38,688 nucleotides of DNA from IMG/VR virus record IMGVR_UViG_2703718837_000002. One strand, given 5' to 3'. The position numbers and the translations under genes are program-made. Under the pieces are notes generated by a model that worked only from the letters and a program-made list of their open reading frames with translations, did not search any database and was not told where the DNA came from. This DNA is from a virus (lineage: Duplodnaviria; Heunggongvirae; Uroviricota; Caudoviricetes). Below are positions 10,694 to 31,142 of the stretch, piece after piece (position 1 is the first letter of the stretch; each line of letters starts with the position of its first letter).

Positions 10694-10861
10694 TAACCTA
10701 CCATCGAACACGGCTCTATTGATCTCATCGTCGTTCAGGCTTATAGTTCCACCGTCGTAGCAAATTCTGCGACCAGGTTTGACAGCCTGAATACGAATGC
10801 GGACAACCGCAGATTTCCGATATTGCGGTATTTTTGTGTCCGTAAACCACGTTACGCCCGA

Positions 10862-10944
10862 ATTATGGTGGGGCGTGATGGGGAGGCTTCGGCCTGCTGG
10901 TTTCATTCGTGCCAGTCTGTCAACCCTGTCACGTCCTGCCACCT
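10862..10944 (+). ncRNA. c4-like antisense RNA (module A); boundaries approximate
   Basis: UUCG-capped hairpin at 10883-10896, then CATTCGT (10904-10910) and CTGTCAA (10917-10923), exactly complementary to ACGAATG and TTGACAG at the icd-like RBS (10946-10985) and at an upstream site (10778-10799). Confidence 0.5.
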
Positions 10945-10993
10945 GTTTGACAGCGGGTCGCAGGTTGTTAAACCTACGAATGAGGCCGTAACT

Positions 10994-11215
10994 ATGGTTA
11001 ATGCCAATCCTTGCGCACGCCCTGAATTTATCTGGCGCTTTTACTCCTGCCAGAAACGTCACTATCACTTCGTAATTGCACCGACAGAAGATGAGGCCCG
11101 CTCTCTGCTTCCTGACGCTCCCTGCATTTTCTCTGCCCGCTTTTCCACTGATTCGCGCAACTCTCTCAGTTACTGGTGCCTCCCTGTTAACGCTTCTGCT
11201 CAGGAGGGACTATGA
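10994..11215 (+). CDS. Icd-like small protein (73 aa)
   Basis: ATG at 10994 preceded by GAGG; ATGA overlap with the Ant-like gene; FIWRF...EDEAR..L...C.F.AR pattern resembles Icd-like proteins; the ORF track's longer 10823 start is rejected. Confidence 0.6.
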   Translation: MVNANPCARPEFIWRFYSCQKRHYHFVIAPTEDEARSLLPDAPCIFSARFSTDSRNSLSYWCLPVNASAQEGL

Positions 11216-12303
11216 GAACGTCATTAGTCACCCGTGAAGAAATGATTGAGGCAATTGAACAGCACACATCCTGTATCAGTACCAGGGATATACCGGGTGT
11301 TATTGCCAACTACTTCATGATCACCAAACAACTTTACCGGAGAAAGGACAAGAACGCGGTTCACCGCATTCTGTTGTCTGATATCCGCGAATACCTGCTC
11401 GAACAGGGTCGTCTTGATTATGCAACCGTAACCGCCGAAGCACGCAAGGAGGCACACAGGATGAAAGCAACTAATGTTAAATCAGAAAAAATTACCCTGC
11501 CTTCAGTTCAGGAATCCGAGCTGGTGGTTGTTCAGAATCAGTCTGATGAAATTCCCGTTCTGGAATGGCTGGGAGTGCGTGTCGTAACGACCGAAACTCT
11601 TGCTAGAGGGTATGGTACCGATGAAGCCAATATTCGTAAAAATTTGTCTCGCAACTCCGATCGCTTTGAAGAAGGCAAGCATTACTATCTCTTAACCGGT
11701 TCAAAGTTAAAGGAATTTAAAAGGCTAGTGACTATTAGTCACTTGGTTAGCAAATATACAAGTCAGGTAATTCTCTGGACAGAGCGCGGCGCTGCACGCA
11801 TGTCTAAGATCGTGGACACAAATGAAGCATGGGCATTCTTTGAAAAACTGGAAGACAGCTACTTCCGACAAAAAGAACAGCAACCGGTCTCAATTCCCCA
11901 GACGCTTCCAGAAGCTCTGCGCCTGGCTGCCGAGTTGGCAGAACAGAAAATGCAACTGGAACAACAGCTGGTGGCCGCAGCCCCTAAAGTCGATTTTGCC
12001 GACCGGGTATCAGTGGCTAAGGGGATCCTGATTGGAAATTTTGCAAAGGTTGTTGGACTTAAGCAAAACGCGCTGTTTGCCTGGTTACGGGAGAACGGCA
12101 TCCTGATTGCGTCCGGCGGACGTAAAAATGTACCGTTTCAGCAGTACATAAACGCCGGGTATTTCACGGTGAAAGAAGTGGTGCTGGATGATGAAGATGG
12201 CTACCAGATACGGTTGACGCCCCAGCTAACGGGGAAAGGCCAGCAGTGGCTGACGCGTAAACTGCTCGATGCAGGTTTATTAAAGCCTGTAGCGGCTGAG
12301 TGA
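11212..12303 (+). CDS. Ant-like antirepressor paralog A (363 aa), Bro-N/ORF6N-like centre and KilA-C/Ant-like C-terminus
   Basis: Translationally coupled to the icd-like ORF as in P1 immI; about 90 percent identical to paralogs B and C outside a divergent central patch. Confidence 0.7.
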   Translation: MRTSLVTREEMIEAIEQHTSCISTRDIPGVIANYFMITKQLYRRKDKNAVHRILLSDIREYLLEQGRLDYATVTAEARKEAHRMKATNVKSEKITLPSVQESELVVVQNQSDEIPVLEWLGVRVVTTETLARGYGTDEANIRKNLSRNSDRFEEGKHYYLLTGSKLKEFKRLVTISHLVSKYTSQVILWTERGAARMSKIVDTNEAWAFFEKLEDSYFRQKEQQPVSIPQTLPEALRLAAELAEQKMQLEQQLVAAAPKVDFADRVSVAKGILIGNFAKVVGLKQNALFAWLRENGILIASGGRKNVPFQQYINAGYFTVKEVVLDDEDGYQIRLTPQLTGKGQQWLTRKLLDAGLLKPVAAE

Positions 12304-24161: not shown

Positions 24162-24346
24162 GATTTATTGAAACAAATAAACTACTATTGGACGCCAGAC
24201 TATTGATCTTCCTGTTGTTCAGGCTTATAGTTCCTACGTCATAGCAAATTCTGCGACCGGGTTTAGCAGCCTGAATGTACATGCGGACAACCGCAGATTT
24301 CCGATATTGCGGTATTTTTATGTCCGTAAAACCGCGTTACGCCCGA

Positions 24347-24429
24347 ATTATGGTGGGGCGTGATGGGGAGGCTTCGGCCTGCTGGTTTCATGTACGCCAG
24401 TCTGCTAACCCCGTCACGTCCTGCCACCT
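24347..24429 (+). ncRNA. c4-like antisense RNA (module B); boundaries approximate
   Basis: Same scaffold as A, but core elements CATGTAC (24389-24395) and CTGCTAA (24403-24409) complement GTACATG and TTAGCAG at the B target sites (24262-24283 and 24431-24470). Confidence 0.5.
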
Positions 24430-24478
24430 GTTTAGCAGCGGGTAGCAGGTTGTTAAACCTGTACATGAGGCCGTAACT

Positions 24479-24700
24479 ATGGTTAATGCCAATCCTTGCG
24501 CACGCCCTGAATTTATCTGGCGCTTCTATTCTTGTCAAAAACGTCACTATCACTTCGTTATCGCACCAACAGAAGATGAGGCACGTTCTCAGCTTCCGGA
24601 TGCTCCCTGCATTTTCTCCGCCCGCTTTTCTACCGATTCGCGCAATTCTCTCAGTTACTGGTGCCTCCCTGTTAACGCTTCGGCTCAGGAGGGGCTATGA
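24479..24700 (+). CDS. Icd-like small protein (73 aa)
   Basis: Paralog of the module A icd-like ORF; GAGG RBS overlapped by the antisense target. Confidence 0.6.
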   Translation: MVNANPCARPEFIWRFYSCQKRHYHFVIAPTEDEARSQLPDAPCIFSARFSTDSRNSLSYWCLPVNASAQEGL

Positions 24701-25809
24701 GAACGTCATTAGTCACCCGTGAAGAGATGATCGAGGCAATTGAACAGCACACTGCCTGTATCAGTACCAGGGATATACCAGGTGTTATTGCCAACTACTT
24801 CATGATCACCAAACAACTTTACCGGAGAAAGGACAAGAACGCGGTTCACCGCATTCTGCTAACCGATATCCGTGAATACCTGCTCGAACAGGGTCATCTG
24901 AATTATGCAACCGTCGCAGCCGAAGCACGCAAGGAGGCACACAGAATGAAAGCAACTAACGTTAAATCAGAAAAAATTCATGCACCTTCAGTTCAGGAAT
25001 CAGAGCTGGTGGTTGTTCAGAATCAGCCTGATGAAATTCCCGTTCTGGAATGGCAGGGAGTACGTGTCGTGACAACCGAAACTCTTGCTAGAGGGTATGG
25101 GACCGAAACTAATAACATCAAAGTTAACTATACGCGTAATGCTGATCGCTTTGAGGAAGGTAAACATTACTTTCTACTAACTGGTTCAAAATTAAAAGAA
25201 TTGAAGGACAAGGTTACTCAAAGTAACTTAGTCGCACCGCGAGCAAAGCACCTCACTCTCTGGACGGAACGCGGCGCAGCCCGCCACGCTAAAATGATCG
25301 AAACCGATCAGGCATGGGCATTCTTTGAAAAACTGGAAGACAGCTACTTCCGACAAAAAGAACAGCAACCGGTTGCAATCCCCCAGACGCTTCCAGAAGC
25401 CCTGCGCCTGGCTGCCGAACTGGCTGAACAAAAGCAACTTCTGGAACAGAAAGCCCACCAGCTAAATCAGCAGCTGGTGGCCGCAGCCCCCAAAGTCGAT
25501 TTTGCCGACCGGGTATCAGTGGCCAAGGGGATCCTGATTGGGAATTTTGCAAAGGTTGTTGGACTTAAGCAAAACGCGCTGTTTGCCTGGTTACGGGAGA
25601 ACGGCATCCTGATAGCGTCCGGCGGACGTAAAAATGTGCCGTTCCAGCAATACATCAACGCCGGGTATTTTTCTGTGAAAGAAGTGGTGCTGGATGATGA
25701 AGATGGCTATCAGATACGACTGACGCCCCAGTTAACGGGGAAAGGCCAGCAGTGGTTGACGCGTAAACTGCTCGATGCTGGCTTGTTAAAACCGGTGGCG
25801 GCTGAGTGA
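24697..25809 (+). CDS. Ant-like antirepressor paralog B (370 aa)
   Basis: ATGA-coupled to the icd-like ORF; Bro-N/KilA-C-like architecture. Confidence 0.7.
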   Translation: MRTSLVTREEMIEAIEQHTACISTRDIPGVIANYFMITKQLYRRKDKNAVHRILLTDIREYLLEQGHLNYATVAAEARKEAHRMKATNVKSEKIHAPSVQESELVVVQNQPDEIPVLEWQGVRVVTTETLARGYGTETNNIKVNYTRNADRFEEGKHYFLLTGSKLKELKDKVTQSNLVAPRAKHLTLWTERGAARHAKMIETDQAWAFFEKLEDSYFRQKEQQPVAIPQTLPEALRLAAELAEQKQLLEQKAHQLNQQLVAAAPKVDFADRVSVAKGILIGNFAKVVGLKQNALFAWLRENGILIASGGRKNVPFQQYINAGYFSVKEVVLDDEDGYQIRLTPQLTGKGQQWLTRKLLDAGLLKPVAAE

Positions 25810-28587: not shown

Positions 28588-29439
28588 ATGATAAATTATG
28601 TCTACGGCGAACAACTGTACCAGGAGTTCGTCAGCTTCAGGGATCTCTTTCTAAAAAAAGCTGTTGCACGCGCCCAACACGTTGATGCCGCCAGCGACGG
28701 TCGTCCTGTTCGCCCGGTTGTCGTTCTGCCGTTCAAAGAAACGGACAGCATTCAGGCTGAAATTGATAAATGGACTTTAATGGCGCGGGAACTGGAACAG
28801 TACCCAGACCTCAATATCCCAAAGACTATTTTATATCCAGTGCCTAACATCCTTCGCGGTGTGCGTAAGGTTACAACTTATCAGACAGAAGCTGTGAACA
28901 GCGTCAACATGACCGCTGGCCGCATTATTCATCTGATTGATAAGGACATTCGCATCCAGAAAAGCGCGGGGATCAATGAGCACAGTGCGAAATACATAGA
29001 GAACCTGGAAGCAACAAAAGAGCTAATGAAGCAGTACCCGGAGGATGAAAAATTCCGTATGCGTGTACACGGCTTTAGCGAAACAATGCTGCGCGTCCAT
29101 TACATTTCCAGTAGCCCTAACTACAATGATGGTAAATCAGTTAGTTACCATGTGCCGCTGTGTGGTGTGTTTATCTGCGATGAAACTCTCCGTGATGGAA
29201 TCATCATCAACGGTGAATTCGAGAAAGCAAAATTTAGCCTTTATGACTCTATAGAACCGATCATCTGCGACCGCTGGCCGCAGGCAAAAATATATCGCCT
29301 GGCAGATATTGAAAATGTAAAAAAACAAATTGCCATCACTCGCGAAGAGAAAAAGGTCAAATCAGCCGCATCAGTTACGCGCAGCCGTAAAACCAAGAAG
29401 GGGCAGCCAGTAAACGACAACCCCGAAAGCGCGCAATAA
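28588..29439 (+). CDS. c1: C1 repressor of lytic functions (283 aa)
   Basis: Starts MINYVYGEQLYQEFVSFRDLF, 283 aa, matching P1 C1; its operators are scattered across the window. Confidence 0.93.
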   Translation: MINYVYGEQLYQEFVSFRDLFLKKAVARAQHVDAASDGRPVRPVVVLPFKETDSIQAEIDKWTLMARELEQYPDLNIPKTILYPVPNILRGVRKVTTYQTEAVNSVNMTAGRIIHLIDKDIRIQKSAGINEHSAKYIENLEATKELMKQYPEDEKFRMRVHGFSETMLRVHYISSSPNYNDGKSVSYHVPLCGVFICDETLRDGIIINGEFEKAKFSLYDSIEPIICDRWPQAKIYRLADIENVKKQIAITREEKKVKSAASVTRSRKTKKGQPVNDNPESAQ

Positions 29440-29471: not shown

Positions 29472-30584
29472 TTATTCAGCCGCCACCGGTTTTAACAAGC
29501 CAGCATCGAGCAGTTTACGCGTCAACCACTGCTGGCCTTTACCCGTTAATTGGGGCGTCAGCCGTATCTGGTAGCCATTTTCATCATCCAGCACCACTTC
29601 TTTCACCGTGAAATACCCCGCGTTGATGTACTGCTGGAACGGCACATTTTTACGTCCACCGGACGCTATCAGGATGCCGTTCTCCCGTAACCAGACAAAC
29701 AGCGCGTTTTGCTTAAGTCCAACAACCTTTGCAAAATTCCCAATCAGGATCCCTTTAGCTACTGATACCCGGTCGGCAAAATCGACTTTAGGAGCGGCGG
29801 CCACCAGCTGCTGATTTAGCTGGTGGGCTTTCTGTTCCAGAAGTTGCTTTTGTTCAGCCAGCTCGGCAGCCAGACGCAGGGCTTCTGGAAGCGTCTGGGG
29901 GATTGCGATCGGTTGCTGTTCTTTTTGTCGGAAGTAGTTGTCTTCCAGTTTTTCAAAGAATGCCCATGCTTCATTTGTGTCCACGATCTTAGACATGCGT
30001 GCAGCGCCGCGCTCTGTCCAGAGTGTAAGGCTTCTGGCGTTCTTACCAACAGAGTAACTTCCGGTTACTCTGTTCTTAAATTCTCTTAATTTTAAACCAG
30101 TTAGAAGAAAGTAATGCTTACCTTCTTCAAAGCGGTCAAGGTTGCGAGACAAATTGTTGCGAATATTGGCTTCATCGACCCCATACCCTCTAGCAAGAGT
30201 TTCGGTTGTCACGACACGTACTCCCTGCCATTCCAGAACGGGAATTTCATCCGGCTGATTCTGAACAACCACCAGCTCTGATTCCTGAACTGAAGGTGCA
30301 TAAATTTTTTCTGATTTAACGTTAGTTGCTTTCATTCTGTGTGCCTCCTTGCGTGCTTCGGCTGCGACGGTTGCGTAATTCAGATGACCCTGTTCGAGCA
30401 GGTATTCACGGATATCGGTTAGCAGAATGCGGTGAACCGCGTGTTTGTCCTTTCTCCGGTAAAGTTGTTTGGTGATCATGAAGTAGTTGGCAATAACGCC
30501 CGGTATATCCTTGGTACTGATACAGGCAGTGTGCTGTTCAATTGCCTCGATCATCTCTTCACGGGTGACTAATGACGTTCTCAT
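29472..30584 (-). CDS. Ant-like antirepressor paralog C (370 aa)
   Basis: ATGA-coupled to the icd-like ORF; full-length paralog of A and B. Confidence 0.7.
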   Translation of the reverse strand: MRTSLVTREEMIEAIEQHTACISTKDIPGVIANYFMITKQLYRRKDKHAVHRILLTDIREYLLEQGHLNYATVAAEARKEAHRMKATNVKSEKIYAPSVQESELVVVQNQPDEIPVLEWQGVRVVTTETLARGYGVDEANIRNNLSRNLDRFEEGKHYFLLTGLKLREFKNRVTGSYSVGKNARSLTLWTERGAARMSKIVDTNEAWAFFEKLEDNYFRQKEQQPIAIPQTLPEALRLAAELAEQKQLLEQKAHQLNQQLVAAAPKVDFADRVSVAKGILIGNFAKVVGLKQNALFVWLRENGILIASGGRKNVPFQQYINAGYFTVKEVVLDDENGYQIRLTPQLTGKGQQWLTRKLLDAGLLKPVAAE

Positions 30585-30802: not shown

Positions 30803-30857
30803 AATGGCAGCCTCCTTTGACTAAGTTAAGGAGCTACCGCGTGAGGTCTCAATCTCA

Positions 30858-30930
30858 ATGGCGGTAGCACTGACTGGGTTGAGACTACCGGCGTCAAAGG
30901 GAACCGGCCTGCCTTTCGGCAGCCCAGCCA
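30858..30930 (-). ncRNA. c4-like antisense RNA (module C); boundaries approximate
   Basis: Minus-strand GAAA-capped hairpin (30908-30925), then CCCTTTGAC (30893-30901) and GTCTCAA (30879-30885), complementary to GTCAAAGG(AGG) at the RBS (30811-30821) and TTGAGAC (within 30845-30859); the same two target motifs recur upstream at 31018-31044. Confidence 0.4.
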
Positions 30931-31142
30931 GCACTACCATTGATTTCGGAGCTAAACGCTACGTATGGCTGTGCGATGGCATGACACAAAAAAAAGACGC
31001 TTTCGGCGTCTGTGTCGCCTTTGACATTATTCGGGGTCTCAATCCCGGCACCCGTTTTAATGAGGTGCCTGATAAGCATAAACCGAAAATGCCTCAAGGC
31101 GCAAGAGGTCAGGTTCAATGTAACATCGGCAGTTAAAAAACA

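Follow-up and report, generated by a model that had tools for sequence, protein, structure and literature searches.

The ant genes of the window and their variable patch

The stretch of DNA analysed here (the window, 38,688 nt in full; Caudoviricetes, IMG/VR record IMGVR_UViG_2703718837_000002) is approximately 96% identical over 24 kb to P1-like phage-plasmids of E. coli and E. albertii, and contains three antirepressor-type ant genes, each within an immI-like module of its own (modules A, B and C). The ant A gene (11212-12303, + strand, 363 aa) occupies the lydE-pro slot and was assigned by its Pfam ORF6N and ANT matches and by alignment to P1 Ant1/Ant2, with ant B (24697-25809, +, 370 aa) located between darB and cre, and ant C (29472-30584, -, 370 aa) between c1 and pacB. 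The ant A product consists of the Ant1 N-terminus (aa 1-86), an ORF6N domain (aa ~116-218) and a KilAC domain (aa 250-352), and has an internal in-frame Ant2 start (M84) with an AAGGAGG ribosome-binding site, which aligns to the annotated ant2 start of P1. Matches in A, B and C scored 64.7-73.2 bits for ORF6N (PF10543, cut-off 27.8) and 106.7-111.6 bits for KilAC/ANT (PF03374, cut-off 25.3).

Overall identity of the three Ant proteins was 88.4%, 90.1% and 90.0% in pairwise comparison, and the differences were concentrated in nt 403-615 of the coding sequence (codons 135-205). This patch is located at 11614-11826 (+) in ant A, 25099-25311 (+) in ant B and 29970-30182 (-) in ant C, which represent allele types A, B and C, respectively. 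DNA mismatch in the patch versus elsewhere in the gene was 38.5% versus 7.6% for A/B (Fisher p = 3e-26), 21.6% versus 8.8% for A/C (p = 8e-7) and 35.2% versus 3.7% for B/C (p = 3e-34), with corresponding protein identities in the patch of 59%, 75% and 59%. The hotspot recurred in 60 unique homologous ant genes taken from viral contigs, where column entropy was ~1 bit at codons 131-205 versus ~0.05-0.15 over most of the remaining gene. An earlier sequence-only reading of the window had described Ant paralogs of about 90% identity with a localised divergent patch, which is thus confirmed at both the DNA and the protein level. It had placed the left edge of the patch correctly and the right edge slightly short, with B diverging up to codon 205, and A and C identical from ~11767. 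The reported AT-richness of the patch is present but modest, as the GC content is 0.42-0.45 versus 0.47 upstream and 0.51-0.53 downstream, with values of 0.31-0.41 in the patch core (nt 490-560).

The affected region had been called Bro-N-like, but its domain is Pfam ORF6N rather than Bro-N in the strict sense. AlphaFold2 (AF2) modelling of the ORF6N domain using 148 diverse homologs gave a predicted local distance difference test score (pLDDT) of 84.4, versus only 44.6 for the full-length protein with 123 near-identical homologs. The modelled order of elements is beta1, beta2, alpha1, turn, alpha2, beta3, alpha3, long loop, beta4, alpha4 and alpha5, and the patch runs from the turn before alpha2 into alpha4. 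The possibility raised earlier that it forms a single surface loop is at odds with this prediction, in which the patch spans alpha2, beta3, alpha3, the loop, beta4 and alpha4. Variation was densest in alpha2 (8/10 positions), alpha3 (8/10) and the loop at aa 173-184 (11/12). Positions that vary between alleles are also those that vary in the ORF6N family (mean entropy 2.09 vs 0.58, p = 1e-8), and the residues conserved in the family are kept in all seven alleles described below. Fold matches of the model to winged-helix/MerR-like folds were modest, and a PDB sequence search returned spurious L9 matches only; we infer that ORF6N is a winged-helix domain with alpha2 as recognition helix. This predicted helix is encoded at 11623-11652 (+, aa 138-147) in A, where residues 139, 142, 143, 146 and 147 are A, R, K, S and R, at 25108-25137 (+) in B, with the signature N, K, V, T and R, and at 30144-30173 (-) in C, with A, R, N, S and R. 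The ORF6N profile matched 2251 representative clusters at E <= 0.001, and no functional study of the domain was found in the literature searched.

The palindrome at codon 175 and its coupling to helix alpha2

When the AT-rich core of the patch was tested for a hidden DNA element, an inverted repeat was detected in all seven allele types and in four lambdoid phage genes, with its centre at nucleotide 2 of codon 175. In ant A it is located at 11727-11743 (AGTGACTA-T-TAGTCACT, centre 11735, half-site GTGACT), in ant B at 25212-25228 (GGTTACT-CAA-AGTAACT, with pairing arms GTTACT-CAA-AGTAAC, centre 25220, half-site GTTACT) and in ant C at 30048-30074 (AACAGAGTAAC-CGGAA-GTTACTCTGTT, centre 30061, half-site GTAAC[CT]). 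The remaining allele types and the four lambdoid genes have similar repeats with arm sequences of their own. Comparable palindromes were absent from the rest of the gene, no further copies of the three palindromes were found in the 38.7-kb window when allowing up to 3 mismatches, and no integration host factor (IHF) consensus was found in the patch. Likewise, the N-domain of roi of phage 2851, which encodes a pRha and a KilAC domain, had no comparable palindrome.

The site at codon 175 was the best palindrome gene-wide in 42/52 unique ORF6N genes from viral contigs, and in 54/69 genes from a one-genome-per-species collection, spanning Enterobacterales, Acinetobacter, Chromatiaceae, Burkholderiaceae, Clostridia and Bacteroidota. 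Its observed palindrome score was 7.85, versus a mean of 3.68 when synonymous codons were resampled with the protein sequence kept (Wilcoxon p = 5e-10). When 39 distinct sequences were aligned, pairing was seen in 84% of the cells versus 28-38% when the partner columns were slid, and 9/10 palindrome pairs showed changes on both sides, with a covariation score of 0.49 versus 0.19 in shuffles that was reached by 0/500 shuffles. The palindrome is kept by compensatory substitutions, some of which are synonymous. It lies in DNA coding for a surface loop, the residues of which obey mirror-image codon pairs (V-H/Y/N, A/P-G, T-S and N/D-I), and the constraint therefore acts on the nucleic acid and not on the protein. 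Two main families of outer arms (k = 8-15; examples are the genes L097 and L131) can be distinguished, AACAGAG...CTCTGTT and ATTTGCGAG...C[GT]CACAAAT, the latter with two conserved internal mismatches.

Coupling of the palindrome to other parts of the gene was assessed in 77 non-redundant genes, by Spearman correlation of the identity of the inner arms (k = 2-7) with that of other segments. The inner arms correlated with alpha2 (aa 136-148; rho 0.64, reached by 0/2000 permutations in a Mantel test), compared with rho values of 0.04 for the intervening aa 151-169, 0.035 for the adjacent outer arms and 0.14 for the downstream segment. Inner arms and helix co-vary position by position at residues 139, 142, 143, 146 and 147. 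Residue 142 predicts base k7 (G for R or K, C for Q) in 75/77 genes for the left arm and 76/77 for the right arm, residue 147 is linked to k3 (C for R, A for N), residue 139 to k6 (C for K), and residue 143 to k5 (G for K, A for N, C for D, T for V). The correspondence as read from these genes is close to a code, and agrees with the usual preferences in protein-DNA contacts, in which Arg and Lys pair with G, Asn with A and Asp with C. By helical periodicity the co-varying residues would be on one face of alpha2, with the conserved I141, N144, L145 and N148 on the other. The co-varying bases of the two arms are 10 bp apart. In the window, the signatures and half-sites are ARKSR with GTGACT (A), NKVTR with GTTACT (B) and ARNSR with GTAAC[CT] (C).

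The coupling appears to be to the DNA and not to the loop peptide, because Gly177 is encoded by GGC in genes with R142 but by the synonymous GGG in genes with Q142, and because the L230 gene has the same CCATCT arms in a different frame, which changes the loop to LTILKMV instead of RPSLRGS while its alpha2 type is the same as in L233 and L234. The lack of a G.U excess among mismatches on both strands also speaks for coupling to DNA. The pattern found is thus a two-fold symmetric site that co-varies with the residues of a predicted recognition helix, as looked for in an autogenous operator.

Two other palindromes were noted in ant-type genes. The conserved YF[TS]VKE motif in the KilAC domain, present in Ant, in P1 Ant1 and in the Roi protein of phage 2851 (L084), is encoded by a perfect palindrome, TTTCAC-N-GTGAAA, which is located in ant A at nt ~950-965 (window ~12161-12176) and may be a mere consequence of the conserved peptide. 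In the unrelated central domain of P1-type Ant1, the best gene-wide palindrome is likewise at a fixed codon, 157 (nt ~470; seen in L070, L073/L076, L087, L088 and P1 X15639, L081), and its outer arms change in a compensatory manner between alleles (ACCTACAC..GTGTAGGT, TACTACGAAA..TTTCGTAGTG, ACGGTTACAC..GTGCAACCGT and ATTTTACAC..GTGCAAAAT).

A putative specificity cassette and the alternatives

We consider it fairly probable that the patch is a specificity cassette of an ORF6N winged-helix domain, the operator of which sits inside its own gene. In P1-type antirepressors this cassette would be flanked by the conserved N-terminus of Ant1 on one side and the conserved KilAC C-terminus on the other, and an ORF6N dimer would bind a ~15-bp two-fold symmetric site in double-stranded DNA, with half-sites 10 bp apart from centre to centre. 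A single gene would carry both a reader, alpha2 at the left edge of the patch, and 30 codons downstream, in the patch core, the site that is read, with the paralogs in the window predicted to read GTGACT (K143), GTTACT (V143) and GTAAC[CT] (N143). A recombinant separating helix from site would be mismatched, which would keep the patch as one unit and the alleles distinct. Since reader and site must match, a segment with both would behave as a single specificity cassette, and this would account for the deep and discrete alleles, the low diversity within each allele and the sharp recombination edges in conserved flanks. The target-recognition surface proposed in the sequence-only reading survives in altered form, as the patch starts at the predicted recognition helix and also holds the probable DNA target of that helix. 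Candidate roles of the putative binding are autoregulation, a transcriptional roadblock and anchoring in cis; that autoregulation or anchoring would be specific to each module, paralleling the exclusive c4 specificities described below, is speculative.

Several points weigh against a self-encoded operator. The centre of the palindrome was taken as the best-scoring position among 9-12 codons. The gene-wide, resampling and slid-column controls agree with one another and lessen the resulting selection bias, but part of it remains. The distinction between coupling to DNA and coupling to peptide depends on one clear frame-shifted case and one partial case, and the putative binding as a whole is derived from sequence covariation. 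The alleles in the window differ mainly at one base per half-site, which makes cross-binding likely and any orthogonality hypothetical. P1 Ant is known as a protein that binds C1, and is not known to bind DNA. Finally, the outer arms are complementary yet do not track alpha2, and here a simple dimer-operator model fails where a hairpin would fit.

The unexplained outer arms may thus leave room for a hairpin role, and the palindrome could instead be a stem-loop in the ant mRNA or in single-stranded DNA, acting in processing, pausing or recombination, in which case complementarity alone would matter and the link to alpha2 would have another cause. Complementarity indeed extends over nearly all of k = 2-13 and thereby into the outer arms, which vary independently of alpha2, the arms (6-16 nt) and the central loop (1-11 nt) vary in length across genes, and the RNA of the C allele folds with a z-score of -4.7. 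However, the hairpins of A and B are weak (z = -1.7 and -2.1), and mismatches are not enriched for the G.U type on either strand (20 sense, 27 antisense, 48 other). A purely structural stem predicts neither the near-deterministic links between amino acids and bases nor the fixed 10-bp spacing, and we consider this explanation unlikely.

Within the population there are approximately seven discrete patch alleles, with a nucleotide divergence in the patch of 0.8% within and 33.5% between types, versus 3% and 5%, respectively, in the flanks. The proportion of synonymous differences in the patch (pS) is 0.44-0.73, corresponding to a synonymous substitution rate (dS) of 0.7-2.9, which is near saturation, and the ratio of nonsynonymous to synonymous rates (dN/dS) is 0.12-0.24. 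When module C of the window was compared with L032, the boundaries of the replacement were ~240 bp apart, with 14-31 mismatches per 50 nt between ant nt 400 and 636, 0-1 mismatches per 50 nt over most of the >1 kb of backbone flanking the module, and a somewhat higher count (at most 7 per 50 nt) from c4-icd into the N-terminal part of ant. The pacB-c1 slot hosts all seven allele types, and the same type was also found in different slots. Extra ant genes in this slot and in the res-mod region, which correspond to the positions of modules C and B, were mentioned in passing in an earlier paper, without analysis of alleles or palindromes (PMC6906374). Left, middle and right sub-blocks of the patch reassort, and sub-blocks are shared with Ant of AU5Stx1, AntB of phage 2851 and gp22 of SPN3UB. 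Pairwise distances of patch and flank were weakly correlated (rho 0.17-0.30), the linkage of patch allele to c4 specificity is loose, and no linkage to the allele of the neighbouring c1 gene was detected.

Because the synonymous sites are near-saturated, the boundaries are sharp within near-identical flanks and sub-blocks are shared, the alleles are, to judge from the sequences compared, old, and have been moved by homologous recombination between slots, plasmids and the antirepressors of lambdoid phages. Recombination in the conserved flanks and in islands of conserved motif (RFxEGKHY and LWTERGAAR) shuttles the alleles. Of the two processes offered by the sequence-only reading, cassette exchange is the one supported, by the discrete alleles, their sharp boundaries, the presence of the same allele in several slots and the reassorting sub-blocks.

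The other process was diversifying selection, and recent positive selection by point mutation could act on a protein-protein surface, in repressor binding or evasion of an inhibitor. In line with this, the ratio of nonsynonymous to synonymous polymorphism (pN/pS) is 0.44 in the patch versus 0.05-0.14 in the flanks, the variable positions vary across the whole ORF6N family as well, the ant copies within a genome differ in 23/24 pairs, and the core of the C-type was matched in 100 records at 100 places. For the A-type core, 42 records and 43 places were counted, and for the t1 core 155 records and 159 places. The number of differing pairs is not significant, however, as ~20 are expected by chance, and megablast with a conserved probe under-counts the ant copies per plasmid. 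Furthermore, the dN/dS values are far below 1 with dS saturated, the alleles are discrete and internally conserved, C1 is highly conserved and its adjacent allele unlinked, and the amino acids of the core loop are set by the mirror-image codon pairs, a constraint on nucleic acid. Recent positive selection in its simple form was rejected on the dN/dS values, and we regard this alternative as improbable.

Correction of quasi-palindromes by template switching is an established mutational process in E. coli, which yields concerted changes in both arms, and the palindrome might be a functionless quasi-palindrome perpetuating itself by template switching during replication, with the patch alleles being old xenologous segments. 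Within the folded core (residues 115-219), model confidence is lowest for the loop encoded by the palindrome, and substitutions may be tolerated there. Such a local process would not be expected to couple the site to alpha2 residues at a distance of 25-39 codons; codon position and phase of the palindrome are shared by Proteobacteria, Firmicutes and Bacteroidota, and the remainder of the gene is free of comparable palindromes, making this origin very improbable. Targeted hypermutation by a diversity-generating retroelement, or relaxed constraint on redundant paralogs, would fit the localised variation in otherwise conserved repeats, but can practically be dismissed, as the mismatches lack an adenine bias (A fraction 0.22-0.37), indels are present, no template repeat was found besides the paralogs (no separate search for a reverse transcriptase was made), diversity within alleles is low, and the three ORFs in the window and the 60 homologous genes are full-length with all conserved ORF6N residues retained.

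If the patch is indeed a cassette of reader and site, a function, a site and a residue-to-base code would be given to a widespread phage domain, and the deep, discrete alleles in a short stretch of near-identical paralogs would be explained by co-inheritance of reader and site. Part of the apparent protein hypervariability (aa 171-180) is dictated by the palindrome in the DNA rather than by protein-level selection. Annotated antirepressors may also act on DNA, and the way in which the extra Ant copies of P1-like phage-plasmids work is put into question; such plasmids commonly carry resistance genes. Should the code hold, DNA-binding parts of differing specificity could be drawn from these natural alleles. 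A broader proposition, which in our estimate could equally well hold or fail, is that ORF6N domains are sequence-specific readers with their own operator in loop-coding DNA and a simple code at residues 139, 142, 143 and 147, and that P1-like phage-plasmids stack several such c4-gated, non-interfering modules.

The Chi sequence GCTGGTGG occurs 39 times in the window versus 1.0 expected, with copies within the ant genes at 11520, 11967, 25005, 25455 (-), 25473, 29801 (-), 29819 (+) and 30269 (-). Each ant gene has a coding-strand Chi ~95 nt upstream of the patch and another ~140-160 nt downstream, and B and C have an extra Chi on the opposite strand inside a 21-nt linker insertion, giving a pair with the orientation that breaks arising in the patch would call for. 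Since the background density is high, this arrangement around the patch may be coincidental.

The immI-like modules and related systems

The window contains darB, cre and the C1 repressor gene c1 (28588-29439; NCBIfam NF041318), with pacA- and pacB-sized ORFs at the positions equivalent to those in P1. All three immI-like modules are complete, each with a c4 antisense RNA upstream of ant. The c4 RNAs were identified with Rfam RF01695 (gathering score 45) at 10861-10946 (+) in module A (69.8 bits; a' TCATTCGT, b' CTGTCAA), at 24346-24431 (+) in module B (70.8 bits; a' TCATGTAC, b' CTGCTAA) and at 30857-30944 (-) in module C (75.4 bits; a' CCTTTGAC, b' GTCTCAA). In each module the loop elements of c4 have complementary targets (7-8 nt) on its upstream and on its downstream side, and because the target pairs of each c4 occur solely in its own module, the phage-plasmid carries three mutually exclusive immI specificities. 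Upstream of c4, Rfam c4-a1b1 (RF03163) was matched in modules A and B only, and at this position module C alone has an isrK-like Hfq-binding RNA (RF01394, 59.8 bits; 30990-31068, -). The icd gene of module A (10994-11215, +, 73 aa; NCBIfam NF033153, E 7e-13) has a stop codon that overlaps the ATG of ant, and the regions upstream of ant B and ant C are near-identical to module A when aligned.

The modules of the window thus resemble the immI operon of P1 and P7, which has a c4 RNA, a/b target pairs flanking c4 and an icd gene overlapping the start of ant. P1 and window Ant also share the N-terminal 86 residues of Ant1, the Ant2 start M84 with its ribosome-binding site, and a near-identical linker and KilAC domain. 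In contrast, the central domain of P1 Ant1 is unrelated and has no Pfam match where the window proteins have ORF6N, and the three modules of the window are in the non-canonical lydE-pro, darB-cre and c1-pacB slots.

The same ORF6N domain is present in antirepressors of lambdoid, Stx and Salmonella phages (Ant/AntB of AU5Stx1, 2851 and TL-2011c, and SPN3UB gp22), which have a patch identity of up to 68-71% with identical short stretches, and the same intragenic palindrome at the same codon. These lambdoid-type proteins differ in having ORF6N at the N-terminus, fused to P22_AR_C or to C-terminal regions unmatched in Pfam and not to KilAC, and they lack the Ant1 extension and c4 control.

Roi of HK022 and 2851 shares the KilAC C-terminus with window Ant but has a pRha N-domain, and HK022 Roi reportedly binds a site inside its own gene (Clerget and Boccard 1996). 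In lambda O with ori-lambda and P1 RepL with oriL, a DNA-binding protein and its site are located in the same DNA, and specificity is inherited and exchanged together. By analogy, the proposed logic of reader and site in ORF6N resembles that of lambda O with ori-lambda; the sites of lambda O and RepL are, however, iteron arrays for replication, unlike a single two-fold site in the loop-coding DNA of a regulator, and nothing points to a role in replication for the ORF6N palindrome.

The Listeria AriS family combines a conserved ANT/KilAC C-terminus with a swappable, predicted DNA-binding N-proximal domain that confers phage-specific activity (PMC9043618). Unlike window Ant, AriS proteins have AntA/AntB, Bro-N or pRha domains and not ORF6N, and a coding palindrome that co-varies with a recognition helix was not described for AriS- or Roi-type proteins in the literature searched.

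Two minor features of the ant genes lie outside the patch. In codons 61-100 (A ~11392-11511), around the Ant2 ribosome-binding site and M84, synonymous nucleotide diversity (piS) was 0.03-0.10 versus 0.15-0.3 elsewhere, which suggests added constraint at the nucleotide level near the Ant2 start. In addition, the linker at aa 247-253 (A ~11950-11961; B 25437-25457) differs in length by 7 residues (QKM-QLEQQ vs QKQLLEQKAHQLNQQ), and the short form found in A is shared with canonical P1 Ant1 and L076, providing a further marker of mosaic ancestry.

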